A DNA stretch of 64,000 nt from a virus. Taxonomy: Duplodnaviria > Heunggongvirae > Uroviricota > Caudoviricetes. Shown here piece by piece: positions 12,885 through 40,844 of the stretch (its first letter is position 1; each line of letters starts with the position of its first letter). The notes under the pieces were generated by a model. The model did no database searches. It had not been told where the DNA came from and was given only the letters and a program-made list of their open reading frames with translations. A program made the position numbers and the translations under genes. The stretch spans positions 2,397 through 66,396 of the IMG/VR virus record IMGVR_UViG_3300031853_000017. The stretch is one strand, 5' to 3'.

Positions 12885-13062
12885 TAATTTGTATCAAAGA
12901 TACACCTATAAAGAGTGTGCAAGGGAGCAAGCCCGATGACCGTACACCAACCTACTTTATGCAAGGTGGTAATGCTTGACCGATAGGTTTTTTAATCCTA
13001 TCGGTGACGATAGGGTTTTATCTTTTACGGCTCAAATCTAAAATTTAAAAGGATTTGAAACA

Positions 13063-13650: not shown

Positions 13651-13818
13651 ATGCCGAAGATTCAGCGCAGAGGAATAATATTCTTCATTGAGAGAAATAT
13701 TCGCGGAGCTTGGATTGTCTATGGCAAAGAAGGTATTAAACAATACTATGGATATACCAAAGAACAGGCACGGCAAAAATATCTTGATGAAGCGCGAACA
13801 ATAATAAATGAGAAATGA
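13651..13818 (+). CDS. small protein (55 aa)
   Basis: GAGGTAG SD + ATG. Confidence 0.4.
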   Translation: MPKIQRRGIIFFIERNIRGAWIVYGKEGIKQYYGYTKEQARQKYLDEARTIINEK

Positions 13819-13825
13819 GGTTTTT

Positions 13826-14155
13826 ATGGCAAAACTGAGAGTGTGGTGGATTCCGCAAGTTCCAATGGAAGCCTTTTACGTCCCTGTTGAATCGCCCGAA
13901 GAAGGTCAAAAGGTAATGAATATTCTGGCTACTTATGATTGTTTTCAATATAACCATAATGTAAAGCCGGATTATGCTAATACTGGCGGTTTGCAATACT
14001 TCAATGAAGAAGATAATGAGTGGGAAGATTGGTACTTTGAGGATGACAATTCCTACTATGACGACCTTGATGAATATATTGAGGAACAGTCCGACCGCGC
14101 GGCTGAAATTGAAGCTCAGAACAAGGCTTTACTCGAACAGGTACATTTCGATTAA
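13826..14155 (+). CDS. acidic hypothetical protein
   Basis: GAGG SD + ATG. Confidence 0.5.
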   Translation: MAKLRVWWIPQVPMEAFYVPVESPEEGQKVMNILATYDCFQYNHNVKPDYANTGGLQYFNEEDNEWEDWYFEDDNSYYDDLDEYIEEQSDRAAEIEAQNKALLEQVHFD

Positions 14156-27267: not shown

Positions 27268-27809
27268 AGAAACTACTGGTCTTAGTAGATTTTCAAAATG
27301 ATTTTATTGACGGTGCGCTCGGAACACCGGAAGCTATGGCAATCGTGCCGAATGTTATCAAGAAAGTAAAAGAATGGGACGGCGATATTTGGTTTACCGC
27401 AGATACACATAATACAAACTACTTAAATACAAATGAGGGTAAGCACCTTCCCGTTCCTCATTGTATCAGAGATACCGAAGGTTGGGAGTTACAGAAAGAC
27501 GTTGCAGAAATTCTCAGAGAGAAAATGTCACAAGAAGAATTTGAGCAAAATACATTTATTAAATATACATTTGGTTCTGAGAGATTGTGTTTGAGCATTA
27601 AGTTGTTACAATATGATTATGTTGAGTTTATTGGGCTTTGCACCGACATCTGTGTTGCAAGTAATGCAATTATGTTAAAGGCATTTATGCCTGAAACTCA
27701 GATTGCAGTTGACCCCTCATGTTGCGCCGGCGTAACTCCTGAAACTCACGAAGCGGCATTAACTACAATGAAAATGTGCCAGATTGATATTTTGGAGGTA
27801 GTAAAGTGA
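27264..27809 (+). CDS. isochorismatase-family cysteine hydrolase (nicotinamidase PncA-like)
   Basis: VLVDFQNDF (Asp), GLCTDICVASN (catalytic Cys) motifs; ATGA overlap with upstream gene. Confidence 0.65.
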   Translation: MKKLLVLVDFQNDFIDGALGTPEAMAIVPNVIKKVKEWDGDIWFTADTHNTNYLNTNEGKHLPVPHCIRDTEGWELQKDVAEILREKMSQEEFEQNTFIKYTFGSERLCLSIKLLQYDYVEFIGLCTDICVASNAIMLKAFMPETQIAVDPSCCAGVTPETHEAALTTMKMCQIDILEVVK

Positions 27810-28663
27810 TTCAAGTAAACCGCAAAACTGTTGAATTATCACGTTTTCCAGACGGAACACTTCATCTTGTTCCCGAAATTGATTTATCAAGTGCAGAATA
27901 TCACATTACAATTTCGTGGTATTATGAAGATGATAGTGAAATGGCAGCGTTACTGTTTTTGACAAGGTATTTCAAGGAAAATGGCTTTGAAGTTATTCTG
28001 TTCATGCCATATATCCCAAACGCAAGAATGGATAGGGTTAAAAATGAGAATGATGTTTTCACGCTCAAATATTTTGCGGACTTCATCAATTCACTTCATT
28101 TTTCTCTCGTTATAGTTCTCGACCCACATTCAGCTGTTAGTGAAGCCTTAATTAATAATATTATTGTTTTCACTCCTATTGATTACATAGAAAAAGCATT
28201 TGAAAGAGTCAATAAAGAAACGAATGGGGAAATCATTGCATTTTATCCCGATGAAGGCGCAATGAAACGATATTCCGAAATCATTGATTGCCCGTATGCG
28301 TTTGGAGTTAAAAGGCGCGATTGGTCTACCGGAAAAATTCTCGGATTGGACATTATCGGCGATGAAAACTATTTGCGCGGGAAAAATATAATCATTATTG
28401 ATGACATTAGCAGCAAGGGCGGTACATTCTATCATTCAGCAAAGAAACTCAAAGAGGTTGGCGTAAACAAAATTTTCCTCTATGTTACTCATTGTGAGAA
28501 AACAATATTAGAGGGGGAAGTGTTTACAAGTGGGTTGATCGACAAGGTATTTACAACAAATTCTATCTTTACTCCTGCCGCGCTTGAAACGGCAAAAAGT
28601 AAAGGTTTATCGGATAAAATTGAGGTGTTTGAAATTGAAAACGAATCCTATGCTACTGATTGA
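27806..28663 (+). CDS. ribose-phosphate pyrophosphokinase (Prs)-like protein; candidate ADPR-PP synthetase (Adps) of NARP1
   Basis: PYIPNARMDR (Prs PYxxYARQDR-like) and IIIDDISSKGGT PRPP-binding motif; overlaps flanking genes (coupled). Confidence 0.7.
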   Translation: MIQVNRKTVELSRFPDGTLHLVPEIDLSSAEYHITISWYYEDDSEMAALLFLTRYFKENGFEVILFMPYIPNARMDRVKNENDVFTLKYFADFINSLHFSLVIVLDPHSAVSEALINNIIVFTPIDYIEKAFERVNKETNGEIIAFYPDEGAMKRYSEIIDCPYAFGVKRRDWSTGKILGLDIIGDENYLRGKNIIIIDDISSKGGTFYHSAKKLKEVGVNKIFLYVTHCEKTILEGEVFTSGLIDKVFTTNSIFTPAALETAKSKGLSDKIEVFEIENESYATD

Positions 28664-30104
28664 TTTTTATAAGGCTGTTCATGCGGAAATGTTGCCGCAG
28701 AATATCACAAAATCAGTATCTTATTTTACACCACGCATGAGCCGCGTTAAGCGTTGGGATAAGGTTGTGATGTTTGGATTGCAAGGTTTTATCAAGGAAT
28801 ATCTAATTGATTTTTTCAATGATAATTTCTTCAATGTCCCGCTCGAAACCGTTATGGGCGAATACACAAGAATCATGGACAACACGCTTGGCAAAAATGC
28901 TTATAATCCAAAGAAGATTGAGAATTTACACAATCTTGGATATTTGCCGATTGAGATTGTAGCATTACCAGAGGGAACGCTTGTGCCTATGCACGTTCCG
29001 ATGTTCGGGATTACTAATACCCACAAGGATTTTGCGTGGCTTCCGCAGTCGCTTGAGTCTTTGATCTCGGCAGAAATGTGGCATCCGATGCTTGCGGCGA
29101 ATGTCGGTTATACATACCGTCAGATTGTCAACAAGTATTATGACGAAACCTGTGATGATAACATTCCACGAGCAAAAGCACTTGGAGCGTTTGATTTCCG
29201 TGGTGAGGAATGTTTGCAGAGCGCGACAAAGGCTGGCGCGGGTTGGCTGTTATCTTTCTTGAATACCGCAACGGTTCCGGCAATTCCGTACCTTGAAAAT
29301 TATTACAACTGTGATTGCACAAAAGAGCCTGTCGGTTTTGGTTCACCATCCACGGAACATTCCGTTATGTGTAGCAATTTCGCGGTTGACGGAGATGAAA
29401 TCACGCTGCTCCGCAGATTGTTGACAGAAATTTATCCGAACACTTCTTTCTCGGCGGTGCTTGACAGCTACGATTATTGGAATGTCATTGACAATATCCT
29501 TCCTCAGTTAAAGCCTGAAATTCTCGCACATAATGGCTGTATGCTCATGCGCGGAGATAGCGGCGATTGCATTGAGGTCGTAACCAAGACGGTATTTAAG
29601 TTGTGGGATATTTTCGGTGGCACGGTCAATAGCAAGGGTTATAAGGTACTTGACCCGCATGTTAAAGCTATTTACGGCGATTCTATCACTGTGCAGCGTT
29701 GCGAGATAATCTATGAAATCCTCAAAGAAAATGGATTTGCTTGCTCAAATGTTGCACTCGGCGTTGGTTCATTCTCATTCCAGTGCATTGAAGAAGATGG
29801 AATATTGAAGCCGTTCACACGCGACACGTTCAGTTCTTGCATTAAGGCTACTTATTGTGAGATTGATGATAAGCCTGTTCCGATTTTCAAGAATCCAAAA
29901 GATGGCGGATTTAAGAAATCTCAAAAGGGTTGTTGTGTTGTTTATAAATTTATGAACAACATTGTTTATAAGGACGAATATACTTGGAAAGAGGCAAACG
30001 AATTACCCTATCAGTTGCTTGAAACCGTATTTAAGGATGGAAAAATCGTTAAAGAGCAAACGCTTTCAGAAGTGCGCTCAGTATTGCACGGAGGTAAGTT
30101 TTAA
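28650..30104 (+). CDS. NAMPT-family phosphoribosyltransferase; candidate Namat of NARP1
   Basis: Colinear similarity to NAMPT: LLIDFYKAVH, LPIEIVALPEG, NSKGYKVLDP...GDS, conserved His in HSVM. Confidence 0.75.
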   Translation: MLLIDFYKAVHAEMLPQNITKSVSYFTPRMSRVKRWDKVVMFGLQGFIKEYLIDFFNDNFFNVPLETVMGEYTRIMDNTLGKNAYNPKKIENLHNLGYLPIEIVALPEGTLVPMHVPMFGITNTHKDFAWLPQSLESLISAEMWHPMLAANVGYTYRQIVNKYYDETCDDNIPRAKALGAFDFRGEECLQSATKAGAGWLLSFLNTATVPAIPYLENYYNCDCTKEPVGFGSPSTEHSVMCSNFAVDGDEITLLRRLLTEIYPNTSFSAVLDSYDYWNVIDNILPQLKPEILAHNGCMLMRGDSGDCIEVVTKTVFKLWDIFGGTVNSKGYKVLDPHVKAIYGDSITVQRCEIIYEILKENGFACSNVALGVGSFSFQCIEEDGILKPFTRDTFSSCIKATYCEIDDKPVPIFKNPKDGGFKKSQKGCCVVYKFMNNIVYKDEYTWKEANELPYQLLETVFKDGKIVKEQTLSEVRSVLHGGKF

Positions 30105-30892
30105 TGGGATTCAATGCAAATAAAGTTAAAGACGATATTGTTGTCTGGATTCGCAAGATGTTTGAAGAAAACGGTAAAGGTTGTAATGCAGTTATCGGAA
30201 TCTCAGGCGGCAAAGACTCAAGCGTAACCGCCGCATTATGCGTTGCTGCTTTAGGCAAAGATAGAGTAATCGGCGTTCTTATGCCAAATGGTAAGCAAGA
30301 GGATAAAAACGTTGCAGTTGAATTGTGTAACCATTTAGGCATTAACCATATCGAGATAAATGTCAAAAATGCGTTTGATTCCATTTTGGAGCAGATTGAC
30401 GAAATTTATATTTCAAAAGTGGATTCTTATATCCCGATTTCTATTTCCGATCAAACCACTATCAACCTTCCTCCGAGATTGCGCATGGCTACGTTATATG
30501 CAGTATCTCAATCTGTTGGTGGTCGTGTCATGAACACTTGTAATCTATCAGAGGATTATGTTGGATATGCGACCAGATACGGCGATTCTGCCGGAGATTT
30601 TGCACCTTTGGCTAATCTGACATCTGATGAAGTTATCGCGGTTGGTGCTGCTTGCGGACTACCAAATTCATTCATCTATAAAACTCCGTCAGATGGGCTT
30701 TGCGGCAAAACTGACGAAGATAATCTTGGGTTTACCTATAAAGTTCTTAATAAGTATATTAGGACTGGTATTTGTGAAGATAGCAAGATCAAGGAAAGAA
30801 TTGTCGCTATGCACAAGAAGAATAGGTTTAAGTTGCAGCCTATGCCGGCATTTCCATACAATGCCGGAAATGGAAGAAATAAACTACGATAA
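30104..30892 (+). CDS. nadE: NH3-dependent NAD+ synthetase (NadE)
   Basis: PP-loop GISGGKDSS; C-terminal similarity to NadE; TAATG overlap. Confidence 0.75.
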   Translation: MGFNANKVKDDIVVWIRKMFEENGKGCNAVIGISGGKDSSVTAALCVAALGKDRVIGVLMPNGKQEDKNVAVELCNHLGINHIEINVKNAFDSILEQIDEIYISKVDSYIPISISDQTTINLPPRLRMATLYAVSQSVGGRVMNTCNLSEDYVGYATRYGDSAGDFAPLANLTSDEVIAVGAACGLPNSFIYKTPSDGLCGKTDEDNLGFTYKVLNKYIRTGICEDSKIKERIVAMHKKNRFKLQPMPAFPYNAGNGRNKLR

Positions 30893-30960: not shown

Positions 30961-31253
30961 ATAAGAGAAGTCAGGAGATAACACCTTGACTTAAAAAATT
31001 CTCTTGTAAAGTAAACATAAAAAACATAATTAAATAATCGTAAGTAGTGAGTATAGAGCCTTTTGAAAAATAGCGAAACATCATTAGAATAATTAGTTCA
31101 TCTCCCTTCAAAGGAGATAGTCTTGGTTAAAGTCCGAGGTGTTGTTTCAAAGTTTGGATAAAGAAAAAGATAACATCGCGCGGGTTATCTCCCACAGGTG
31201 AAAGTCCTGTGGCTTACGTTGATATAGATATTACATTACAAAGGGAGTTACAA

Positions 31254-32873
31254 ATGTTAAACATTCTTATTCCAATCGGCATTGCGGTTGCGGTGCTTGC
31301 GTTTATAGTCATTTTCCTCTGTCGAATTTACAGAGTAGCAGACATTGACAAGGCGCTGATTATCACCGGAGGTAAAGAACCAGTCATTAAAGTATCAGGT
31401 GGTAGTTTTGTCGTTCCGATTTTCCGAAAAGCTCAGTATTTTGATTTATCAATGCTGACTGTTACAGCAGACCGTGATGAAGTAAAGACTAAAACATCAG
31501 TTCCTATCGTTATTGATTGGACAGCCCAGATTCGACCAGATACAATGAATCACGATAATTTACGTAAAGCAATTATTTCATTCAAAGAGCGAGGTCAAAA
31601 GGGCATTATCAATGACATCAAATTGACACTAACAGGTGCGGTTCGAGATATTGTTGCCGGAATGACACCGGAAGAAGTTCTCCGCGACAAACAGGCATTT
31701 GCCGAGAATGTAAGAGAAACAGTAGCAGATGAAATGGTCAATATGGGTATGGAGCTTGTTTCGCTCAATATTCAGGATATTTCAGACCAGAACGGCTACT
31801 ATGACAACATTGCTGCGCTCGACATGGAAGATAAACGTCAGGCTGCGGAAAAGAAGAAGGCAGTAATCAATGAATCCGTTCGTTCCCAGAATGCAGAATC
31901 AGAGAGAATTGCTTCACAAAACGAATTAGCCGCTGCATTGGCTGTCGCTGAAAAGCAGAGAGATAACAATATTAAGAAAGCGGCGTACAAGGCAGAAACA
32001 GATAAGGCTAATGCCGATGCGAACATTGCCGGCGAGTTGCAACGTACAATCAGGCAACAGGAAGTTGCAGAGCAACAAGGTCGTGTTGAGGTTGTAAAGC
32101 AGGAACAGGCTAATCTTGCGGCGATTAAAGAGCAGGAAGTAATTGCGACAAAAGCCGAATCCGAGAAAAAGAAAAAGCGGATTGAAGCAGAAGCAGACGC
32201 AAATGTTCAGACCATCGGCGCAGAAGCAAGGGTAAAGGTTGCCGAAAATGAAGCAAGCGCTGTAAAGATTCAGGCAAATGCACAGGCTGAAAGACTTAAA
32301 ACAGAAGGTGATGCCACTGCCGCAGTTATCAAGCAAAAGGGTATTGCGGAGGCTGATGTAACCAAACAGAAAGGTCTTGCAGCGGCGGAAGTCGAAAAGC
32401 AACAGGGTCTTGCACAAGCAGAAGTAATTAAGCAGAAGGGTCTTGCAGAGGCGGAAGTTGAAAGACAGAAGTTGATGGCACAGGCAGAAGGCGAGAGAGC
32501 ATTGGCGGATGCTCGTGCTTCAAATGAGAAAGTAAACTTTGAAATTGAGAAGTTGAAGCTCGAAACACAGGCAAGAATCACCATTGCTACCAAGACTGCG
32601 GAGCTTATGGCTGATGTAGGTAAGAATGCGGAGTTCGTTAATATTGGTGGCGGTGCTGCCAACGGCGGAACTGGAAACGTATTGACCGACACACTTTCAA
32701 GCATTCCAGTGCTGATGAAGAAATTAGACGCGGAAAATACCGCTCTAAACGGAAAGCCTTTCAATGATGAACTGCGAAACCTGATTGCAAGTATTGCAGA
32801 ACCAGTCAAGGGATTGCTTTCAACGACGGTGAATGAAGCACCGAAAACTGTGGAAGATACCGACGCAGAATAA
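31254..32873 (+). CDS. flotillin/SPFH (band 7) domain protein
   Basis: N-terminal TM + SPFH core + long Ala/Glu/Lys-rich QKGLAEAEV repeats typical of flotillins. Confidence 0.7.
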   Translation: MLNILIPIGIAVAVLAFIVIFLCRIYRVADIDKALIITGGKEPVIKVSGGSFVVPIFRKAQYFDLSMLTVTADRDEVKTKTSVPIVIDWTAQIRPDTMNHDNLRKAIISFKERGQKGIINDIKLTLTGAVRDIVAGMTPEEVLRDKQAFAENVRETVADEMVNMGMELVSLNIQDISDQNGYYDNIAALDMEDKRQAAEKKKAVINESVRSQNAESERIASQNELAAALAVAEKQRDNNIKKAAYKAETDKANADANIAGELQRTIRQQEVAEQQGRVEVVKQEQANLAAIKEQEVIATKAESEKKKKRIEAEADANVQTIGAEARVKVAENEASAVKIQANAQAERLKTEGDATAAVIKQKGIAEADVTKQKGLAAAEVEKQQGLAQAEVIKQKGLAEAEVERQKLMAQAEGERALADARASNEKVNFEIEKLKLETQARITIATKTAELMADVGKNAEFVNIGGGAANGGTGNVLTDTLSSIPVLMKKLDAENTALNGKPFNDELRNLIASIAEPVKGLLSTTVNEAPKTVEDTDAE

Positions 32874-32939
32874 GTAACGGTATTATACATAATAGGAGAG
32901 TGTGGAAACACTCTGCACTCTCCAATACCTCTTATATAT

Positions 32940-33015
32940 TGGGCTGTAGCCAAGCGGTTAAGGCATCGGTCTTTGACACCGTGATTCGTTGGTTCAAATC
33001 CAACCAGCCCAGCCA
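32940..33015 (+). tRNA. tRNA-Gln(TTG)
   Basis: Acceptor TGGGCTG/CAGCCCA, anticodon loop CTTTGAC, T-loop TTCAAAT, encoded CCA. Confidence 0.65.
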
Positions 33016-33021
33016 ATACAT

Positions 33022-33111
33022 TCTCGTGGAGTTCGGTAATGTCGCATGTGATACTGGACGAAGGCAAAATCGCCGTGGTTTATGTGGGTTCAAATCCCAT
33101 CACGAGAGCCA
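33022..33111 (+). tRNA. tRNA-like, 90 nt, anticodon unresolved
   Basis: Perfect 7-bp acceptor TCTCGTG/CACGAGA, T-arm GTGGGTTCAAATCCCAT, CCA; internal arms atypical. Confidence 0.4.
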
Positions 33112-33546
33112 GACCCGCCGTTACAAGTAAACACAGAGTTGAATGTAGCGGAATGAACCTAATAATTGGTCATTAGTCAGTGGGTAGAATAGCCACACGG
33201 GTCAAACTGCCCGTAGCCAAAAGAGTTTGTTTTCATACTTTTGTTTATCAGAAGTAAGGTTTGTACGTTTTACTTTATAAGAGCGTGGAATACGGTTTCA
33301 ATTTAAGCCGAGGGAAGTTTATTCATTCTGACCTATGGAAAGTGAATGAGTAAGGTGGGATTCGCGCCTTGCAGTAACGTGGCAAGTGGAAACATTTCGG
33401 GTTGGCTACCGAAATTGGGAACACACCGATTAGGATGACAACCTACTTTCAACTGCAAAAGATAACAATAGTCAATAAATTTAATGGCTCGCGGCTCGCA
33501 AAGAGCGACCACATATTATGACTTTGGCGGAAGTCGCGGGTTATAT

Positions 33547-33639
33547 GGCGCAGTAACCCTAATAGGCAAGGGAGCAGTTTGCTAAACTGTGAGTAGCCGA
33601 GCAATCGGTGTGTTGGTTCGAGTCCAACCTGTGCCGCCA
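33547..33639 (+). tRNA. tRNA-Ser(GCT)
   Basis: Acceptor GGCGCAG/CTGTGCC, anticodon loop TTGCTAA, long variable arm GCCGAGCAATCGGT, CCA. Confidence 0.6.
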
Positions 33640-33813
33640 TAAGGTTCTTGTTGACCGAAGAATAACAAGCGATGCCCAATGAGAAGCGGGCGTGAAGTCT
33701 GTCAGTCGGACAATGCTGAGATAGCGGCTGCGTGTTATGTGTGACTTTTCGGCGGGTTTTCAATAGGACTTTAGCGTGAATAAAGTTGAAGTAATAATCC
33801 GCCCACGACATAT

Positions 33814-34216
33814 GGGGCTGAAATAGATTCGACAGGGCACAGAAAACATATAACTTCGCAGGAATGTAACATCCTTAAAGTACACCTTAAAAAATAAACG
33901 ACACTACTGTTGTTACACTTCATCCCGCGCTTTTAGCAGTTCTCGGTCAGAGAGCCGTAGCGTGAGATTCCGATAAGTACCTGCTATTCGGTCTAACTTG
34001 TCGGACGGAAATAGAATAGCAACCAATGGTTTCTTACTTCCGCAAAAAGTAAGTGGTGGAGTGGGTGTAAATCTTTACATCTCCATTCGTTTCCCGCGAA
34101 TTAAAACAAAGTTGTGGTTTGCAGGTTTCCACGGAGAAAAATCGGCTATTGCGTAAGAAAAGTTAGTGTGAGTATGTGTTTTGGACACGGAGGGCAGTTC
34201 TCCGTCAGCTCCACCA
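33814..34216 (+). ncRNA. ssrA: tmRNA (ssrA)
   Basis: 5' GGGGCTGAAATAGATTCGACAGGG matches tmRNA 5' consensus; 3' GGACACGGAGGGCAGTTCTCCGTCAGCTCCACCA matches tmRNA T-arm/acceptor/CCA; ends pair. Confidence 0.7.
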
Positions 34217-34242
34217 ATTTATAAATAAGGGGTTTAATTCTC

Positions 34243-34899
34243 ATTTCATATATTTATAAGATTACAAATCTTGCAAATGGCAAGATATATGTCGGCAATA
34301 CCAGTAGGGATATTCAGACACGTTTGAAGGAGCATTTAAGAGAATCTAAAAAAGAAAGAAATAGAAATAGACCTTTATCTATTGCTATAAGAGAATATGG
34401 TCAGGAAAATTTTCAAATTGATTTAATTGAAGAATGTCCTATTGAAATTGCACCGGAACGTGAAAGATATTGGGTTGATCGTTATAATAGTTTCAAAGAT
34501 GGATATAATGCGACCTATGGTGGGTTAGGCAGTAATAGCGTTGATTATGACAAAGTAGTTGATACATATTTGCAAGTTAGGAGCCAAAAAGAAACTGCGG
34601 AATTATTGAATATTTCACCTTTTACTGTAAGTAGTATATTACAACAAAAAAATGTAGACTATGATACAAGTTATGAAGTATTAGCAAAAAGATGCAGTAA
34701 ATCAGTTGATATGTTGTCTATGAGTGGCGAATTTATAAGACAATTTCCTTCGATACGCAAAGCAACTAAATATATTATAGAAACCGAGAATAAACCTTAT
34801 AAGCATATATTTGGTATAGAACAACACATTATAAATGTTTGTCAAGGAAAAAGAAATTCAGCTTATAACTACAAATGGAAATATTCAAATGTAGTTTAA
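34243..34899 (+). CDS. GIY-YIG homing endonuclease (I-TevI-like), probable non-ATG (ATT) start
   Basis: SYIYKITNLANGKIYVGNT...RLKEH...YGQENF...YWVDRYNSFKDGYN; GIY-YIG motif lies upstream of first ATG/TTG (34324), directly after tmRNA. Confidence 0.6.
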   Translation: MSYIYKITNLANGKIYVGNTSRDIQTRLKEHLRESKKERNRNRPLSIAIREYGQENFQIDLIEECPIEIAPERERYWVDRYNSFKDGYNATYGGLGSNSVDYDKVVDTYLQVRSQKETAELLNISPFTVSSILQQKNVDYDTSYEVLAKRCSKSVDMLSMSGEFIRQFPSIRKATKYIIETENKPYKHIFGIEQHIINVCQGKRNSAYNYKWKYSNVV

Positions 34900-35052
34900 C
34901 TAAAAGATGAACCAAATCCACATCTATAAAAAGGATTGGTGGTAGTGGAATCTTGTATTCACCTGATGAACTTAACTCACATCATTAAAAAGAGTTAGTG
35001 GTGGGATTCGAGGATAAACCTCGCGGGAGAGTCAATTATACTCTCCCAAAAC

Positions 35053-35127
35053 GCAGACATAGTGTAATTGGTAACACACCGTCCTTCCAAGCCGGATTTG
35101 CGGGTTCAAGTCCCGTTGTCTGCTCCA
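35053..35127 (+). tRNA. tRNA-Gly(TCC)
   Basis: Acceptor GCAGACA/TGTCTGC, loop CTTCCAA, CCA; one mismatch in anticodon stem. Confidence 0.5.
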
Positions 35128-35133
35128 TAAAAT

Positions 35134-35208
35134 GTGGTTGTTAGTGTAGTGGTAGCACGACAGATTGTGACTCTGTTAGGATAGGTTCAAATCCTGTACT
35201 TCCACCCA
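35134..35208 (+). tRNA. tRNA-His(GTG) with G-1; two T-T mismatches in acceptor stem
   Basis: 8-bp acceptor GTGGTTGT/ACTTCCAC, loop TTGTGAC, CCA. Confidence 0.55.
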
Positions 35209-35211
35209 TAT

Positions 35212-35284
35212 GCCGATGTAGCTCAGAGGCTAAGAGCAGTCCGACGAACGGGATATGTCGATGGTTCGAGTCCATCCATTGGTA
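35212..35284 (+). tRNA. tRNA-Arg(ACG)-like with 5-nt anticodon loop (possible pseudo-tRNA)
   Basis: GCCGATG acceptor, GCTCAGAGGCTAAGAGC D-arm, GTCCG-ACGAA-CGGGA, T-arm GATGGTTCGAGTCCATC. Confidence 0.35.
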
Positions 35285-35390
35285 AACGTAGTTAGTAGCA
35301 CTACGGTCAATAAGCTACACGCGATTGGTGGTTATCGCAGAGGTTGACAACTAAAAACCATCTGACACTTCGGAAAGACGGGGCATATGC

Positions 35391-35466
35391 GGCGGGTTAG
35401 TCAAGAGGTGAAGATACGCGGCTTTCAATCGCGTGACGCTGGGTTCGATTCCCGCACCCGCTACCA
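35391..35466 (+). tRNA. tRNA-Glu(TTC)
   Basis: Acceptor GGCGGGT/ACCCGCT, D-arm GTCAAGAGGTGAAGAT, loop CTTTCAA, CCA. Confidence 0.65.
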
Positions 35467-35470
35467 ATAT

Positions 35471-35545
35471 GCGCCAGTAATTCAGTGGAAGAATAACGCA
35501 CTTTTAATGCGGAGGTCGGAGGTTCAAATCCTCTCTGGCGCACCA
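35471..35545 (+). tRNA. tRNA-Lys(TTT)
   Basis: Acceptor GCGCCAG/CTGGCGC, loop CTTTTAA, CCA. Confidence 0.7.
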
Positions 35546-35589
35546 TCTCATACACAACCAGCAATATTAAAGGCACAGTCTGTCAAACT

Positions 35590-35700
35590 GTATTACCTCA
35601 CTTGTGTATGGTTCATAAGGCACATTAACAGCAAATTTACAATGGTAAACAAGAAGTCTGGAAAATTTTAAGTGAGTAGGTTCAAATCCTGCAACCGTGC
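35590..35700 (+). ncRNA. tRNA-like element with insertion carrying AACAGCAAATTTAC motif
   Basis: T-arm GTAGGTTCAAATCCTGC with possible acceptor TATGGTT/AACCGTG; motif at ~35626. Confidence 0.25.
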
Positions 35701-35798
35701 TATGCACGTTCTTAAATGTGTCTTGATTACAAACAAAAAAAGATACGAACAGCGAAAGCTCCTAAGTGTCTTGAAAAGAAAGAAAAGGAGAAAAAGAA

Positions 35799-37352
35799 AT
35801 GTCATTTTTTACTGAACTTCAAAACAACATTAACGAGATCAACAATTTGCAGCGTACCGAAAATGGCGCTCTTGGTTACAAATCGACCGGCAAGACTATC
35901 CTTGACATGAACTTTGACGTTCCGAAATATCGTCATTCTTCGCCGGAAGAGATTCTCGCCAAGTTTAATCAGGCGCGTTCGGAAAATCCCACGCTTGCTA
36001 TCCTGTGGACATTCTTTGCAAGAGATGTTCGCGGCGGTCTTGGAGAAAGAAGATTGTTCAGAATCCTGTTCCGCGAAATCTGCAATTCTGATACCGAAAC
36101 TGCAAAGAAGGTTATTCCTTTGGTTTCTGAATACGGCAGATGGGACGATTTGATTTATTCTACAATCAATACTCCTGCATGGGAAAAGACCATTGAGGTT
36201 GTCAAGGCGCAGTTGCTTGAAGATACCGATAACGTTAAGGCAAACAAGCCTATTACGTTGCTCGGAAAGTGGCTGCCCAGCGAGAGAACTTCAAGCGTAC
36301 AAACAAGAGAAACCGCGCGGAAGATTGCACACGACATCGGTTTGCCGATTAAGGATTACAACCGTATGCTTGTCGCTTTGCGTAAGTATTCAAATGTCGT
36401 TGAGGTAAAAATGAGCGCAAGAGAATGGGGCGCGATTGATTATTCAGCCGTTCCTTCCTATGCAAACTTGAAGTATAACAGTGCTTTCCTTCGCAACGAC
36501 GAAGAAAGACGTAGAAAGTACCTTGCGGCACTCACAAAGGGCGAAACCAAAATCAATGCTTCTACTGCTTATCCGCACGACATTGTGAGGAAGTACAAGA
36601 TTGGTTGGAGTTATGCCAATCATGCAGACGAAGCGATCGAAGCAATGTGGAAAGCGTTGCCTGACATGGGCGGCTTGGAAAACACAATCGTTGTTGCAGA
36701 TGGTTCCGGCTCAATGTATGGCGGTGGAAATCCTTCGCCGATTGACGTTGCGAATGCCCTTGCGATTTACTGCGCCGAGCATAACAAAGGTGAGTTTTAC
36801 AACAAGTATATCACATTCTCGCGTACCCCGAAGTTTGTTGATTTAAGCAAAGGCAAGACTTTGTTGGATAAACTCAACATTGCAAGTCGCCATAATGAGG
36901 TTGCCAACACGAATATCGAGGCTGTCTTTGACATTATTCTTGATACGGCGATCGAGAGCAAGGCGGCGCAAGAAGATATTCCGAAGTCAATTCTTATCAT
37001 TTCCGATATGGAATTTGATAGTTGCGCGGAATCTAATTCATCATCTCGTCGTGGAACGACAAGTTATTATTCCATGCGCAGTTACAACCGCCCTGATTCA
37101 ACTCTGTTTAAGCAGATTGAGAAGAAGTATGCGGCGGCTGGATATAAAATTCCGCGCGTGGTATTTTGGAATGTTGCTTCAAGAACAAGCACAATCCCAA
37201 TGATTGAAAATGATTTGGGTGTAACGCTTGTCAGCGGTTATTCCGTATCAATCTTCAAGATGATTATGGACGGAGAAACAGACCCATTCCAGAATCTTGT
37301 TAATATGCTGATGTCTGAGAGGTATCAGCCGGTTTACAAGGCAATTCAATAA
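35799..37352 (+). CDS. Ro60/Rsr-like protein (TROVE-like N-terminal region + vWA MIDAS domain)
   Basis: 517 aa; C-terminal MIDAS VVADGSGSM and ILIISDME; overall size and domain order as Ro60/Rsr. Confidence 0.5.
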   Translation: MSFFTELQNNINEINNLQRTENGALGYKSTGKTILDMNFDVPKYRHSSPEEILAKFNQARSENPTLAILWTFFARDVRGGLGERRLFRILFREICNSDTETAKKVIPLVSEYGRWDDLIYSTINTPAWEKTIEVVKAQLLEDTDNVKANKPITLLGKWLPSERTSSVQTRETARKIAHDIGLPIKDYNRMLVALRKYSNVVEVKMSAREWGAIDYSAVPSYANLKYNSAFLRNDEERRRKYLAALTKGETKINASTAYPHDIVRKYKIGWSYANHADEAIEAMWKALPDMGGLENTIVVADGSGSMYGGGNPSPIDVANALAIYCAEHNKGEFYNKYITFSRTPKFVDLSKGKTLLDKLNIASRHNEVANTNIEAVFDIILDTAIESKAAQEDIPKSILIISDMEFDSCAESNSSSRRGTTSYYSMRSYNRPDSTLFKQIEKKYAAAGYKIPRVVFWNVASRTSTIPMIENDLGVTLVSGYSVSIFKMIMDGETDPFQNLVNMLMSERYQPVYKAIQ

Positions 37353-37395
37353 GGTAGCAACTGTATAGCTTGACGGCGGGAAAGACCGCAAATAT

Positions 37396-37514
37396 AAGGG
37401 TGTAGTCTAATGATAGGACACTGGTGATAAATGACGTGTCATGGCGCGGCACAAACAGCAATCAACTATTATCGACCCAAACCAGAAATGTAGGTTCAAA
37501 TCCTGCCGCCCTTG
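37396..37514 (+). ncRNA. tRNA-like element A with ~50-nt insertion (motif ACAGCAATCAAC)
   Basis: Acceptor AAGGGTG/CGCCCTT, D-arm, T-arm GTAGGTTCAAATCCTGC. Confidence 0.35.
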
Positions 37515-37521
37515 TCAATAT

Positions 37522-37648
37522 TGGGATGTAGCTCAGTTGGTTAGAGCAACGTAAAAATACAAAAGGTGTTTTGTAAAAGCACTTGCAGCAATTTTAACGT
37601 AAAGCATGTTAAGCCGTAGGTCGCAGGTTCGAGTCCTGCCATCCCAGC
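37522..37648 (+). ncRNA. tRNA-like element B: Ala/Val-type acceptor+D-arm, ~55-nt insertion replacing anticodon loop
   Basis: TGGGATGTAGCTCAGTTGGTTAGAGC...; 10-bp helix ACGTAAAAAT/ATTTTAACGT encloses ACAAAAGGTGTTTTGT hairpin and CTTGCAGCAATTTTA; T-arm GCAGGTTCGAGTCCTGC. Confidence 0.4.
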
Positions 37649-37653
37649 CTATA

Positions 37654-37758
37654 TGCGGGTGTAGCTCAGTTGGTAGAGCGTATAAATATAATGTTTTGCG
37701 AAAACATTAACAGCAATTTTATTATAATGTCAGCAGTTTAAATCTGTTCGCCCGCACC
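37654..37758 (+). ncRNA. tRNA-like element C with 29-36-nt insertion in anticodon region
   Basis: GCGGGTGTAGCTCAGTTGGTAGAGC; stem TATAA/TTATA; insert AATGTTTTGCGAAAACATT hairpin + AACAGCAATTTTA; T-arm AGCAGTTTAAATCTGTT; acceptor CGCCCGC. Confidence 0.4.
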
Positions 37759-37759
37759 G

Positions 37760-37935
37760 TTTTCATACGCTAACAGCAACCATTATTTACATCAGACCAT
37801 GTATGCCTGAACCGTGAATTTTTAGCGTATGGTTTATATAAGACACACGCAGCAATTTTACATACGGATAATAATTAAAACTGCAAACTTTAATTTAGGT
37901 GGTTCAAATCCACCAAACTTAGTGTCTTGAATACA
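37760..37935 (+). ncRNA. repeat units with ACAGCAA...TTTAC motifs and a T-arm-like GGTGGTTCAAATCCACC
   Basis: CATACGCTAA...TTAGCGTATG 10-bp inverted repeat around motif; second motif CACGCAGCAATTTTACATAC. Confidence 0.25.
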
Positions 37936-37945
37936 ATTACATATG

Positions 37946-38077
37946 GGTGGCGTAGCTCAGTTGGTAGAGCGGTTTTACTTTTCTATTCCCGTGTCTTAGA
38001 GAGTCACGCACAGCAACTTTACAGAATTATGCTTTAGGAGCAGCGTGTCGCAGGTTCAAGTCCTGTCGTCACCCCCC
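37946..38077 (+). ncRNA. tRNA-like element E with ~60-nt insertion (motif CACAGCAACTTTAC)
   Basis: GGTGGCGTAGCTCAGTTGGTAGAGC ... T-arm GCAGGTTCAAGTCCTGT, acceptor CGTCACC. Confidence 0.4.
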
Positions 38078-38178
38078 AACATCTTGCGCAAACAGCAATT
38101 TTACATTTACATCAAACTTTTAATTTGACACGTAGGTAAGCGTAAGGAAAAAATATTACAGTAAATATAAAAAACTTA

Positions 38179-38207
38179 TTGACAAACTCAAAGGTTTGTG
38201 ATATAAT
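38179..38207 (+). promoter_or_regulatory. sigma70-like promoter
   Basis: TTGACA-17-TATAAT. Confidence 0.55.
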
Positions 38208-38285
38208 AAGATTGTCAATTAAGGAAAGCCGCTTTTCAGCGGAAAAACTTAAAGCAAAGAACAGTAAACATAAAAAAGTTAATAT

Positions 38286-38362
38286 GTGGGTGTGACGGAA
38301 TTGGCATACGTCCTTGTCTTAGAAACAAGTTTTTGTGGGTTCAAGTCCCACCGCCCATACCA
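38286..38362 (+). tRNA. tRNA with anticodon TAG (Leu by anticodon) but short variable arm
   Basis: Acceptor GTGGGTG/CGCCCAT, anticodon arm CTTGT-CTTAGAA-ACAAG, CCA. Confidence 0.55.
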
Positions 38363-38372
38363 AGAGGTAGAA

Positions 38373-38660
38373 ATGAAAAGATTGAGTATTCTAATTGGAA
38401 TTTCGTGTATCTCTATTACAGTTTTTGCTGTTATGAGAACAATTCTTATTTCTGTAAGAGGAACGGTAACTTTCGGCGGAGAAGCATTGATTCTTATTAT
38501 TCCGCTTTTGGTTTGGTTGGTTTTTAAGAATATTGATTTAACCAAAGAGGAAATGAAAGACGCTGAACTTTCAAAAGAAGCAGAAAACGCAAGTCGCATT
38601 AAAGTTGAAGATTGCGGCGGAGCGGTTCAAATTACTGATATTCACGTTATTGATAAATAG
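38373..38660 (+). CDS. small membrane protein
   Basis: AAGAGGTAG SD + ATG; two TM helices. Confidence 0.45.
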   Translation: MKRLSILIGISCISITVFAVMRTILISVRGTVTFGGEALILIIPLLVWLVFKNIDLTKEEMKDAELSKEAENASRIKVEDCGGAVQITDIHVIDK

Positions 38661-38730
38661 ATTCACCTCCTTTCTTAATGTGTAGTGACAAATCGGATAG
38701 ACGGTTGACAGCCGGGCAGACGGCATAAAT

Positions 38731-38807
38731 GGTCGTATATCCCAATAGGCAGAGGAAGCGGACTTAAAATCCGCACAGTGTCGGTTCGAGTCCGACTACG
38801 ACTACCA
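38731..38807 (+). tRNA. tRNA with anticodon TAA (Leu by anticodon), short variable arm
   Basis: Acceptor GGTCGTA/TACGACT, arm GCGGA-CTTAAAA-TCCGC, CCA. Confidence 0.55.
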
Positions 38808-38815
38808 CAATAAAT

Positions 38816-38893
38816 GTTGTGATAGGCTCAATAGGTTAGAGCTTTCGCCTTATAAGCGAAGGGCTGGTGGTTCGAGTCCACCTCACAACACCA
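38816..38893 (+). tRNA. tRNA-Ile(TAT)-like
   Basis: Acceptor GTTGTGA/TCACAAC, D-arm GCTCAATAGGTTAGAGC, arm TTCGC-CTTATAA-GCGAA, CCA. Confidence 0.5.
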
Positions 38894-38959
38894 TTATCCA
38901 AATTTATCCTATTCAAATCCTAATTAAAGGTTGACCGCCGAGAATAGTTCGGCACATAT

Positions 38960-39035
38960 GCTCCGATAGTACAGCAGGTTAGTACGCTCGGCTGATAATC
39001 GAGTAACTATGGTTCAAATCCATATCGGAGTACCA
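38960..39035 (+). tRNA. tRNA-Ile(GAT)
   Basis: Acceptor GCTCCGA/TCGGAGT, D-arm GTACAGCAGGTTAGTAC, loop CTGATAA, CCA. Confidence 0.65.
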
Positions 39036-39201
39036 TATAACAATAAAAAGGTTTTGATAAATAATATCAGGTTATTGCAATGATGTATGTATTATTTGTG
39101 GCAAGAGATTAACTCGTCGTCACAAAACACCTTATTGCCGATTTCATTATGATATACAACGAAAAGAAGAAAAGATAAAGAAATGGTTAGAAACAGGTGA
39201 T

Positions 39202-39537
39202 ATGGGATTGGGCGCAGATACTACCGTTCGCGGTACTATTAGAGAATACATACTAAATGAGCAAGGTGGAAAATGTGCTATTTGTGGTATTTCAAATATG
39301 TGGAACAATAAACCTTTGGCATTTATATTAGACCATATAGATGGTAATGCCGCAAATTCAGCAAGAGAAAACGTAAGACTTGTATGCCCAAACTGTGATA
39401 GTCAATTAGATACATATAAATCTAAAAATAAACATTCAGCACGTTCTGGAAGAAAAAAGTATCTAAAAGAAGTAAGAAATGAAAAAATGGCTGGTGAAGC
39501 AGACAAGCGTGCTGCAACCGACTTGAAATCGGATTGA
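39202..39537 (+). CDS. HNH homing endonuclease (conserved zinc-finger-like N-terminal extension encoded in frame upstream from 39061 without canonical start)
   Basis: LDHIDGNAANSARENVRLVCPNCDSQ HNH motif; upstream in-frame CNDVCIICGKRL... Confidence 0.6.
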   Translation: MGLGADTTVRGTIREYILNEQGGKCAICGISNMWNNKPLAFILDHIDGNAANSARENVRLVCPNCDSQLDTYKSKNKHSARSGRKKYLKEVRNEKMAGEADKRAATDLKSD

Positions 39538-39544
39538 CCCGCAA

Positions 39545-39577
39545 GGGTTGGGGTGCAAGTCCTCCGCCAGTCGCCAA
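39545..39577 (+). ncRNA. tRNA-like 3' fragment (T-arm-like + CCA) overlapping the end of HNH gene
   Basis: GGGTTGGGGTGCAAGTCCTCCGCCAGTCGCCA. Confidence 0.2.
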
Positions 39578-40116
39578 AATTGAATGTTGTTCGCTGCGAA
39601 AATAGGCGGGGCAAATTAAAAAGGTTATGAGCGTAAGAAATTACGTCCGCAAAGTCCTCGTTAGCGGGATGCGTGGGTACTGCACCTATGCTGATGGTAC
39701 TCGGCAACATCTGAAATCAATGAGAAGTCATTAATCTGTTCAGGTTGAAATGATATATACCTGTTCGGTACTGAAACCTATCAGGCATTGGTTTTGGCGT
39801 TATAGCCCTACCGATACGTTAAATCGGGGAATCACAAACAGAGGGATAATTAGATTGTAGCCAAATTAAGGTCAATTAGCGAAAGCGAGTAATTCAATCA
39901 ATCCATTACAAGCGGTTGTGCGCTTGGTTCGGGCTATGGATTTAGATAGGGGAGATTGATTGCGGTGAAGTTAATATCGTGCCGGCGGAGTCGGTTAAAG
40001 TTATTACTTGATAATTCCGAGGCGGGGAACGTGGTTAAAGAAGGCAATGCAAACCAACCAACGGTGTTTAGGCATTGAGTAGGAGCTATCCCATCGGCGC
40101 GGTATTAACAACATTT

Positions 40117-40201
40117 GCTGGTGTGTCGGAATAGGCAGACGAGGCAGACTCAAAATCTGTTGCCGAAAGGCGTGTGGGTTCAAGTCCCACCACCAGCACC
40201 A
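40117..40201 (+). tRNA. tRNA-Leu(CAA), class II
   Basis: Acceptor GCTGGTG/CACCAGC, loop CTCAAAA, long variable arm TGCCGAAAGGCGT, CCA. Confidence 0.7.
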
Positions 40202-40221
40202 AAGAAAAGGAGTTTTTGAAA

Positions 40222-40488
40222 TTGACAGCTAAAACCAGACGAGAATCAAATAAAAAAGTTGAGCGCGAGAAAAGATACGCACAAGTTATGAGCATATTGA
40301 AAGGTCGTATAATGACGGCAAAAGAAGTTGCTATAGAAATGAATTTGCGTGGATTTGCGCCAACATCTGAACGTAATTTTGCCGCGCCAAGACTTACTGA
40401 GTTAGTTGATCGCGGGATAGTTGAAGTTGTTGGAAAACGAAAATGCCAATATTCAAATAAAATGGTGGCTATGTATAAATTAGTTTAG
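40222..40488 (+). CDS. putative winged-helix DNA-binding protein (TTG start)
   Basis: AAGGAG SD then TTG. Confidence 0.4.
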   Translation: MTAKTRRESNKKVEREKRYAQVMSILKGRIMTAKEVAIEMNLRGFAPTSERNFAAPRLTELVDRGIVEVVGKRKCQYSNKMVAMYKLV

Positions 40489-40690
40489 TTTATTCCTCGC
40501 AGTAAGAGTTTGCGGAATGCTCAAACTGCTTTCGTATAAAATGTTGTTTGTGTTGTTGTGGTTAAAATTCGTTGTTGTTGACATTCCAAAATTATTCCGA
40601 CAAAGGGCATTGAGCAGAGCCTATGTGGTGGTGATAACTCTATTCCACCTATCAAGTGTGGCGGTCACTTATACAAAAACCGCTAAATAT

Positions 40691-40765
40691 TGCGGGATAG
40701 AGCAGCGGTAGCTCGTTAGCCTCATAAGCTAAAGGTCGTAGGTTCGATTCCTACTCCCGCAACCA
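40691..40765 (+). tRNA. tRNA-Met(CAT)
   Basis: Acceptor TGCGGGA/TCCCGCA, D-arm GAGCAGCGGTAGCTC, loop CTCATAA, CCA. Confidence 0.7.
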
Positions 40766-40768
40766 TAT

Positions 40769-40844
40769 CTGGGTGTAAGTCAATGGTAGACGGCTTGATT
40801 TGGGGTCAAGTAGTTTGGGGGTTCAAGTCCCTTCACTCAGACCA
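40769..40844 (+). tRNA. tRNA-Pro(TGG)
   Basis: Acceptor CTGGGTG/CACTCAG, arm CTTGA-TTTGGGG-TCAAG, CCA. Confidence 0.6.

Follow-up and report, generated by a model that had tools for sequence, protein, structure and literature searches.

We describe a gene for transfer-messenger RNA (tmRNA, ssrA) and an adjoining homing endonuclease gene of the GIY-YIG type in a phage genome assigned to Duplodnaviria; Heunggongvirae; Uroviricota; Caudoviricetes. The DNA analysed (from here: the window) is a stretch of 64,000 nt comprising positions 2,397 to 66,396 of the IMG/VR virus record IMGVR_UViG_3300031853_000017; coordinates given without a contig name refer to it. Within the tRNA array of this large phage, the segment 33814-34216 constitutes a genuine tmRNA gene of the one-piece type, and beside it lies a free-standing GIY-YIG homing endonuclease gene that is present in some lineages only. 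We consider it likely that the locus as a whole represents a phage tmRNA with a long conserved tag and a lineage-restricted homing endonuclease that arrived by break repair. Both kinds of element, phage tmRNAs and homing endonucleases, are already known, and the locus is a well-documented new example rather than a new kind of system.

The tmRNA gene was delimited as follows.

33814-34216, plus strand: one-piece tmRNA (ssrA) gene, 403 nt, with the 5′ end GGGGCTGAAATAGATTCGACAGGG from 33814 and the 3′ end GGACACGGAGGGCAGTTCTCCGTCAGCTCCACCA to 34216

The Rfam covariance model RF00023 matched exactly this interval over model positions 1-374 with 60.7 bits, above its gathering score of 47, and the E value of 2.8e-21 for the whole 64-kb window is far beyond chance. 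A one-piece tmRNA had been proposed at this position from the letters of the sequence, without database searches (from here: the original prediction), and the full-length match above the gathering score, together with compensatory changes in relatives, bears this out. The acceptor pairing GGGGCTG/CAGCTCC and the encoded CCA, with the two ends 403 nt apart, are present as claimed. The description of these ends as universally conserved holds for the acceptor pairing and the CCA but not for the T-loop, which reads GGCAGTT and not the universal TTCRANN. Likewise, the statement that the 403 nt have no protein-coding capacity stands in so far as all overlapping open reading frames (ORFs) are short, with 52 aa on the plus strand and 50 and 41 aa on the minus strand. 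A sub-threshold Rfam score combined with the lack of any foldable pseudoknot had been named as the result that would argue against a tmRNA; the Rfam match passes, and the pseudoknots PK1 and PK2 pair.

Pattern scans and contig look-ups yielded 12 non-redundant members of what we call the long-tag tmRNA family, namely the window and the contigs L001, L002, L004, L015, L021-L024 and L030-L032. The family was found on viral contigs of 39-251 kb. A pseudoknot-tolerant covariation scan of the 12-member alignment supported four helices: the acceptor stem, helix 2a, helix 2c and the hairpin at tmRNA positions 220-240. The structural elements are, from 5′ to 3′:

33814-33820 with 34206-34212, plus strand: acceptor stem GGGGCUG/CAGCUCC, 7 bp, three pairs changed on both sides

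33833-33840 with 34176-34183, plus strand: helix 2a, 8 bp, seven covarying and five of them changed on both sides

33853-33856 with 34160-34163, plus strand: helix 2c, 4 bp, three of the four pairs changed on both sides

33861-33883, plus strand: PK1, with S1 at 33861-63/33872-74 and S2 at 33866-68/33881-83; 70 of 72 cells pair

33970-34020, plus strand: PK2, with HB at 33970-77/33997-34004 and HA at 33983-89/34014-20; 154 of 156 cells pair

34033-34053, plus strand: hairpin CUUACUU/AAGUAAG followed by the conserved UGGUGGAG, 7 bp, four pairs changed on both sides, in the 3′ pseudoknot region

34206-34216, plus strand: acceptor 3′ strand CAGCUCC, discriminator A and encoded CCA

The alanine-identity features are thus present, with G3:U70, the A discriminator and the 3′ CCA, and G3:U70 is kept in all 12 family members. 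The D-loop analogue GAUUCGAC, in which UUCGA is invariant across the family, leads into the long helix 2, which connects the 5′ with the 3′ part of the RNA. In PK1 the middle pair of S2 occurs as U-A, U-G, C-G or A-U and the third pair as A-U, G-C, C-G or U-G, and both PK2 helices are swapped for different complementary sequences in L004, L031, L015, L030 and L032. Taken together, PK1 and PK2 have the strand order of a true pseudoknot topology, with 224 of 228 cells pairing and several pairs changed on both sides, which is good evidence although not independent, the strands having been assigned by hand. Automated picking of the strands by regular expressions had failed and its shuffle control was meaningless, and explicit strands were used instead. 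Between 34025 and 34160 there is a weak match resembling wcaG RNA (28.7 bits, below the gathering score of 42).

The hairpin of the pseudoknot region has counterparts elsewhere. At 34903-35012, 3′ of the endonuclease gene, two tandem modules were noticed, CCAAATCC...GGATTGGTGGT and CTTAACTC...GAGTTAGTGGTGG, each made up of a 7-bp hairpin, an A-rich 3′ loop side and then UGGUGG. The same hairpin-UGGUGG module occurs in the tmRNA pseudoknot region (34030-34060) and in other phage tmRNAs (L004, L031, L036), and it is to this module that the weak wcaG-like score of 28.7 bits belongs.

The tag-encoding part of the RNA comprises two elements.

33889-33899, plus strand: A-rich element AAAAAAUAAAC, read as AAAAAATAAAC, directly upstream of the resume codon

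33900-33965, plus strand: tag frame DTTVVTLHPALLAVLGQRAVA, with the resume codon GAC at 33900-33902, 21 codons and the stop codon TGA at 33963-33965

The A-rich segment had been predicted at about 33885-33896; it does precede the tag, but lies about 4 nt away from that position. Within it, AAAAUAAAC is invariant in 12 of 12 members and aligns to the Rfam consensus AAAAAAUAAuUGCa. The resume codon was assigned from the Rfam alignment and from the calls of ARAGORN on orthologues, the tag region of L001/L011 being identical to that of the window. These calls use the frame originally guessed (from about 33892) for a long tag ending in AVA, and only the start differs, with resumption at GAC 33900; comparison with related phages gives the same codon, and the frame is conserved in 12 sequences. 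The tag DTTVVTLHPALLAVLGQRAVA is common to the window, L001, L002 and L021. In L022 and L023 it reads DNTVVT[LF]HPALLAVLGQRAVA, in L004 DNTTVVFHPALVAALSKRTAA, in L031 DNTVVSLHPALVAVLSKRAAA, in L015 DKTVVTLHPALVATLSQRAAA, in L024 DNTTVVLHPALVALSQRAAA, in L030 DTNTVVLHPAFSAACARAAA and in L032 DNTIVMIHPAFANMLSERAAA.

Across these 12 sequences the tag is conserved at 20-21 codons with the core D-x-T-V-V-x-L-H-P-A-[LF]...R-A-x-A; that of the window ends in AVA, those of relatives in AAA or TAA. With the alanine borne by the tmRNA it amounts to 22 residues, compared with a commonest tag length of 10 in the tmRNA database (PMC11915505). Variable sites are distributed over codon positions 1, 2 and 3 as 10, 8 and 15, and H-P-A is kept through the synonymous codons CCC/CCG/CCT and GCG/GCT/GCA. 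Since third positions are the most variable and H-P-A is maintained synonymously, the tag is under selection at the peptide level, an argument for its translation and for an importance not confined to its C-terminus.

In tRNAs and most tmRNAs the T-arm has a 5-bp stem and a UUCRANN loop. The arm of the window tmRNA is different.

34187-34205, plus strand: variant T-arm with the 6-bp stem ACGGAG/CUCCGU and the 7-nt loop GGCAGUU at 34193-34199

The hairpin is preceded by GGAC and adjoins the acceptor 3′ strand, and its stems are compensated. The tmRNA body of L001 is about 94% identical to that of the window, yet L001 has the canonical GGGTTCGATTCCC T-arm, the arm differing as a block. A relaxed T-arm pattern gave more than 119 hits on viral contigs, some of which may be host ssrA ends and many of which are permuted tmRNAs. 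Among 79 inspected hits, 57 showed GGAC, a compensated 6-bp stem, a GGCRGNN loop and an Ala-type 3′ end, in one-piece and permuted tmRNAs alike. The arm was considered as a new structural class, a candidate that was dropped: the Rfam alpha_tmRNA consensus (RF01849) has the same kind of loop, GGCgGUA, and U-to-G replacements in the T-loops of Caulobacter and jakobid mitochondrial tmRNAs were noted in a modelling paper of 2005 (PMC1168896). The GGCAGUU loop on a 6-bp stem is therefore a known variant compatible with function, and what is unusual is its occurrence in one-piece phage tmRNAs with canonical close relatives.

Two further kinds of phage element share parts of this RNA. A second phage tmRNA family (L026 1833-2133, L027 4645-4969 and L028 6578-6865, minus strand) resides in tRNA arrays, has the short tags DEYEYALVA and DEFDFALAA and the same GGCAG T-loop, and is missed by ARAGORN in all cases. 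The 3′ end of L027 and L028 is nearly identical to that of L024, a long-tag member, which suggests that T-arm modules may be exchanged between phage tmRNA families. The 107-kb viral contig L025 carries at 375-456 an element of 82 nt that corresponds to the tRNA-like domain (TLD) of tmRNA only, without tag region, consisting of the acceptor GGGGCUG, GUUUCGAC, a short helix, a GGCAGUA T-arm and CAGCUCCACCA. A comparable TLD-only RNA is that of mycobacteriophage DS6A, an inhibitor of tmRNA that is believed to suppress host trans-translation (PMC4131195).

Downstream of the tmRNA, the following features were identified.

34217-34902, plus strand: homing endonuclease cassette, 686 nt, replacing about 365 nt of non-coding DNA of L001 and L002

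34227-34232, plus strand: Shine-Dalgarno-like AAGGGG (AAGGAG in L021 and L022), read from the sequences and conserved in L021-L023

34243-34899, plus strand: GIY-YIG homing endonuclease ORF, 218 aa, with a probable ATT start and the stop codon TAA at 34897-34899

The prediction of a GIY-YIG homing endonuclease directly after the tmRNA was confirmed by Pfam PF01541 (E 2.7e-12, residues 8-94) and by matches to PHROG homing-endonuclease families; the protein has the YIY...YVG motifs as well as the R, E and N residues of the nearly invariant columns. The C-terminus has a sub-threshold HTH_28 match (19.8 bits, cut-off 25), and some homologues carry NUMOD1 or PF22083. The gene had been said to begin 9 nt after the CCA. 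At that distance the frame opens (34225, after TAA 34222-34224), but homologues place the start at ATT 34243, 27 nt past the CCA: full-length homologues begin with M[S/A]YIYKITN and their methionine aligns with this codon, which is conserved in L021-L023. Gene callers shorten the ORF to 191 aa and treat its closest homologues likewise. A dN/dS of 0.14 against L021 over the whole ORF indicates purifying selection, and the 27 codons before the first canonical start show three synonymous and no non-synonymous changes in the same comparison. These observations suggest that the endonuclease gene is probably functional and starts at AUU, and the AUU start probably keeps its expression low. A hairpin sequestering the start, as in segB of phage T4, was not supported in the window (fold not significant, z = -0.16), and a promoter and terminator scan of 33000-35800 returned nothing above the shuffled expectation. 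As an aside, the metagenomic protein P0007 (293 aa) is 99% identical to the C-terminal ~88 residues of the window endonuclease, whereas its N-terminus is unrelated, which makes it either a relative with a swapped domain or a chimeric assembly product.

Comparison with the relatives points to a history of the cassette that differs from that of its surroundings. Homology to L001 and L002 ends at the CCA and resumes at AAAGATGAACC (34903), and the endonuclease gene is absent at this site in L001, L002, L004 and L015. In L021-L023, which come from three other samples, the same cassette follows the tmRNA in the same arrangement, and in L024 a homologue with 62% identity lies upstream of the tmRNA instead. 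Against the endonuclease-free L002, the window is 95.5% identical upstream of the tmRNA and 82.5% downstream of the cassette, whereas against the endonuclease-bearing L022 and L023 the values are 83% and 80% upstream and 99% and 98% downstream. Informative sites are of the L002 type at 106 of 117 positions upstream and at 18 of 18 in tmRNA positions 1-105, and of the L022 type at 14 of 15 in tmRNA positions 165-403 and at 61 of 64 downstream. Past 35127 the identity to L022 falls again. The two resulting intervals are:

33919-33977, plus strand: breakpoint interval inside the invariant part of the tag region, the switch occurring between the informative sites 33918 and 33978

33978-35127, plus strand: tract of about 1.15 kb shared with the L022/L023 lineage, comprising the 3′ part of the tmRNA, the cassette and a downstream block

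Hence, the cassette is the centre of a tract of about 1.15 kb whose history differs from that of the rest of the genome. Judged by its sequence pattern, this is the co-conversion footprint that would be expected of homing. The endonuclease would have entered the genome by double-strand-break repair from an endonuclease-bearing relative, and the incoming tract would have replaced the ~365-nt non-coding segment, with co-conversion of the 3′-terminal 240 nt of the tmRNA gene and of some 225 nt on the downstream side. The replaced segment itself (L001 1377-1744; L002 7461-7825, minus strand) folds into a consensus structure, with six base pairs changed on both sides between just two sequences, and may be regarded as a candidate structured RNA; Rfam returned no match for it, and the 64-kb window contains no copy.

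For the tmRNA, the following steps are modelled on the established pathway. The RNA would be cut out of a tRNA/tmRNA precursor, charged with alanine by the host alanyl-tRNA synthetase (AlaRS) via the G3:U70 identity pair, and carried to stalled ribosomes by host SmpB and EF-Tu. Translation would resume at GAC 33900, adding alanine plus 21 residues ending in AVA, and infected cells would keep or gain ribosome rescue with a tag specified by the phage.

The closest known parallel to the endonuclease is SegB, a GIY-YIG endonuclease in the T4 tRNA cluster that recognises GGTTCRANTCC...CCAR and cuts just 3′ of CCAR (PMC2330249). In BLASTP, the window endonuclease and SegB are 36% identical over 61 aa (E 1e-4), and since this likeness is limited to the catalytic domain, the window enzyme is an analogue and not an orthologue. 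The association with tRNA-type genes extends to its own homologues. Those in L033, L036 and L037 adjoin tRNA or tmRNA genes, in 26 of 80 homologue loci on viral contigs a tRNA on the same strand ends no more than 100 nt upstream, and all 24 closest homologue loci have tRNAs within 1.5 kb, with typical gaps of 17-83 nt as compared with 27 nt in the window.

A different rationale had been offered for the site by the original prediction, which pointed to the ssrA 3′ end as an integration hotspot. The hotspot concept refers to the integrase-mediated insertion of islands into bacterial ssrA, after which one would expect two copies of the ssrA 3′ end and a recombinase gene close by. In the 64-kb window a single copy of the 3′ 20-mer was found even with up to three mismatches allowed, the sole integrase-family gene of the window (22359-23321) lies about 10.5 kb upstream of the tmRNA, and the endonuclease subfamily follows ordinary tRNA genes, so that this rationale was abandoned. 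By analogy, the right counterpart for the site is T4 SegB (PMC2330249) and not the ssrA integration hotspot. The corresponding explanation of the locus, in which the tmRNA would be a host ssrA bordering a prophage or island, with the gene downstream of it brought in by site-specific integration at the ssrA 3′ end, has in our estimation next to no chance of being correct. It could appeal to that integrase-family gene, to one relative being on a bacterial assembly contig and to ssrA as a known integration site (PMC11915505). Phage genes separate the integrase gene from the tmRNA, however, no second copy of the ssrA 3′ end exists in the 64 kb, the tmRNA is embedded among phage tRNAs in a position kept in many viral contigs, and the inserted gene is a homing endonuclease and not a recombinase.

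Three other explanations concern the activity of the two genes and the meaning of the T-arm. The endonuclease might no longer be active, being either an untranslated remnant without a start codon or a domesticated DNA-binding protein, while the mosaic arose by ordinary homologous recombination. Such a view gains from the fact that all four closest copies reach the GIY motif without an ATG, GTG or TTG, from the truncation to 191 aa by gene callers and from the L021 copy, which has diverged together with its flanks and thereby suggests long residence instead of recent homing. We nevertheless hold it to be unlikely in view of the frame kept intact in four genomes, the dN/dS of 0.14 over the whole ORF with an N-terminus free of non-synonymous changes ahead of the TTG, the conserved Shine-Dalgarno sequence, the likewise conserved ATT that coincides with the methionine of homologues, and the high-identity tract centred on the cassette. 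That the RNA is a decoy or a decayed tmRNA, which would bind SmpB or AlaRS without tagging and inhibit host trans-translation, seems very improbable to us. Every tested helix covaries, the tag frame, resume context and stop are kept with synonymous substitutions across diverged phages, and the same type of T-loop is the consensus of functional alphaproteobacterial tmRNAs; these findings stand against a T-arm that departs from the canonical loop, the rejection of the gene by ARAGORN, the existence of TLD-only phage elements (L025 375-456; DS6A, PMC4131195) and the failure to find an SmpB gene in the 64-kb window. Finally, the variant T-arm could be an immunity allele, the GGCAG loop shielding endonuclease-bearing genomes from a SegB-like enzyme that recognises GGTTCRANTCC...CCAR. 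T4 SegB recognises exactly this motif and cuts just 3′ of CCAR (PMC2330249), the cassette boundary of the endonuclease-free L001 has the sequence GGTTCGATTCC...CCAG, the T-arm is swapped as a block between L001 and L002, and within the long-tag family the variant arm is found in 5 of 5 endonuclease-linked copies versus 1 of 7 others. The 5/5 association comes from only two clades, though, and the window enzyme is not orthologous to SegB, with which it shares 36% identity in no more than 61 aa of its catalytic domain. The same loop, an alphaproteobacterial norm, is also present in phage tmRNAs without an endonuclease nearby (L002, L026-28), L176 has a canonical tmRNA T-arm followed by an endonuclease homologue, all window tRNAs are canonical, and deviant T-loops are found in 7 of 29 tRNAs beside homologues versus 24 of 152 others in the same loci (p = 0.29). 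With the counter-evidence being stronger, immunity was tested and rejected, and we give it an even smaller chance than the decoy.

The reading preferred here, a phage tmRNA with a long conserved tag and an endonuclease that came in by break repair, has to be set against several points that weigh against it. ARAGORN, which the original prediction had suggested as a check, listed 15 tRNAs in the window and no tmRNA. Within the long-tag family it calls L001/L011, L030 and L032 only; it did call one permuted tmRNA with the variant arm (L062), so that the T-loop is not the sole cause of its misses. The Rfam alignment has low posterior probability across the middle of the RNA. The strands of PK1 and PK2 were chosen from the sequences, which favours the proposed structure even with each pair checked by script, and in the segment 34021-34150 further hairpins were seen, but no pairings could be assigned to PK3 and PK4. 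Expression, charging and tagging of the tmRNA are predictions from sequence alone, and no SmpB gene was detected in the 64-kb window of a probably larger genome (best tblastn E 0.23). Ahead of its GIY motif the endonuclease gene lacks all of the codons ATG, GTG and TTG, of which the first to occur is TTG 34324, and ordinary recombination between co-infecting phages could give the same mosaic without endonuclease activity. The proposed host group, discussed below, rests on a single assembly contig, of which 8 kb was examined.

That the tmRNA is phage-encoded, as originally claimed, is corroborated by its position in a tRNA array (31077-40844) among phage-type genes and by its relatives, which are IMG/VR viral contigs of 39-320 kb. 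All long ORFs of the window are on the plus strand, and its neighbourhood includes:

27806-28663, plus strand: phosphoribosyl pyrophosphate (PRPP) synthetase

28584-30104, plus strand: NAMPT

30104-30892, plus strand: NAD synthase

31209-32873, plus strand: SPFH protein

35799-37352, plus strand: Ro/TROVE-like protein

40864-41724, plus strand: Thg1-like protein (tRNA-His guanylyltransferase)

Further genes of the window encode an NAD-dependent ligase, a sliding-clamp-like protein and a terminase-like ORF. Several related phages (L013, L014, L016-18) have the same neighbourhood without tmRNA, and the tmRNA is thus an accessory gene in the clade. Among deposited phages, blastn matched only a tRNA-Ser region and returned no cultured relative. 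A contig of 207 kb in the assembly of Ruminococcus sp. YE282 carries a tmRNA identical to that of L001, and family-specific scans of metagenome and genome contigs retrieved only the known contigs plus this one. The host is probably a Ruminococcus-like Firmicute of rumen or gut, which should be taken as a lead and not as proof.

Several side observations were made in the window and its relatives. An S-adenosylmethionine (SAM, S-box) riboswitch aptamer at 12903-13016 (49.5, Rfam gathering score 44.4) is located upstream of small ORFs without Pfam match (13063-13377, 13384-13641), with a gp17-like superinfection-exclusion protein at 13808-14155; such a riboswitch is in keeping with a Firmicute as host of the phage. 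The cluster for NAD+ salvage and synthesis (27806-30892) and the Thg1-like gene (40864-41724) flank the tRNA array, and with the Ro-like protein added the phage is richly equipped with genes for RNA maintenance. Immediately downstream of the Ro/TROVE-like gene, at 37396-38074, four elements of 102-129 nt resemble tRNAs but carry a long insert where the anticodon would be; about seven copies of ACAGCAAYTTTA are scattered between them. The elements score 40-51 bits with the Rfam tRNA model and sub-threshold with YrlA (35.4 bits, gathering score 69), and look like phage tRNA mimics of the Y-RNA/YrlA type paired with the Ro orthologue. The "tRNA-SeC" with anticodon UCA that ARAGORN reported at 31077-31148 has only 72 nt and looks like an opal-suppressor-type tRNA. 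No signal for the TGA recoding hinted at by this tRNA was seen in the window, and the tmRNA tag itself ends in TGA. Unusual tRNAs were also noticed at L004 285-357 and at L022 3356-3429 and 6969-7040, namely one with anticodon UUA in a relative and others with 8-nt anticodon loops. The GTTCRA motif of the T-loop is near-universal in tRNAs; in the phage tRNA arrays L157-L236, about 16% of the distinct tRNAs (24/152) deviate from it, often at T54 and with or without an adjacent endonuclease gene. At 61756-62946 the window encodes a protein of the adenylosuccinate synthetase family (best PHROG the PurZ-type phrog_1211, E 4e-45; Pfam Adenylsucc_synt, E 3e-26), which could indicate DNA with 2-aminoadenine (Z-base); the neighbouring ORFs have no Pfam match.

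These results add a well-supported phage tmRNA family from large gut or rumen-type phages. Because surveys based on ARAGORN largely miss this family, phage tmRNAs have probably been under-counted. The locus also provides a clean natural example of a free-standing homing endonuclease carrying along part of an RNA gene, with the breakpoint mapped to within 60 nt inside the tmRNA, and it extends the model of SegB and the tRNA cluster to tmRNA genes and to a different endonuclease subfamily. None of these findings overturns current understanding. The peptide-level selection on the tag raises the question of what the phage gains from a tag of its own. One speculative answer, to which we attach only a small probability, is that the long tag, whose peptide has been kept while the tmRNAs around it diverged, may be a phage-specific signal that reprograms ribosome rescue and not a mere SsrA degron, and that the endonuclease would spread this tmRNA allele between co-infecting phages as SegB spreads T4 tRNA genes. 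If this were true, the phage might use the tag to determine what becomes of rescued chains, or the phage tmRNA might outcompete that of the host.

Phage tmRNAs are known from Bxz1-group mycobacteriophages, Bacillus phage G and "huge phages" (PMC4131195, PMC7162821). As in these, a complete ssrA is carried by a large phage with many tRNA genes, presumably relies on charging and delivery factors of the host and specifies a tag that differs from typical host tags. Unlike them, the window tmRNA belongs to a different sequence family with a conserved tag of 20-21 codons (TVV.LHPA[LF]...RAAA) and an alpha-type T-arm in a one-piece tmRNA; it is missed by ARAGORN, the tool of the huge-phage survey, and its likely host group is different. 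With the T-arm of alphaproteobacterial and jakobid mitochondrial tmRNAs (RF01849; PMC1168896) it shares G-G in place of U54-U55 and the GGCRGNN loop, but those tmRNAs are two-piece (permuted), whereas the one described here is one-piece and phage-borne and has close relatives with the canonical loop. Group I introns, some with LAGLIDADG endonuclease genes, occupy the T-psi-C loop of bacterial tmRNA genes, mostly in Bacillota (PMC11915505). They, too, place a mobile endonuclease-type element at the 3′ part of a tmRNA, but the window endonuclease is free-standing, of the GIY-YIG type and outside the RNA, after the CCA, with no intron or splicing. From T4 SegB (PMC2330249) the window enzyme differs in its DNA-binding part, which is unrelated, so that its target cannot be inferred from that of SegB, and among the tRNAs beside its homologues no link to the T-psi-C motif was found (p = 0.29 for altered T-loops). 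Its neighbour is a tmRNA gene, and restraint would come from the AUU start and not from a sequestering hairpin. What it has in common with SegB is the arrangement and the inheritance: a free-standing GIY-YIG gene a few tens of nucleotides after a tRNA-type gene in a phage tRNA array, absent from close relatives that have other DNA at this place, co-inherited with its flanking markers and apparently restrained in its expression.

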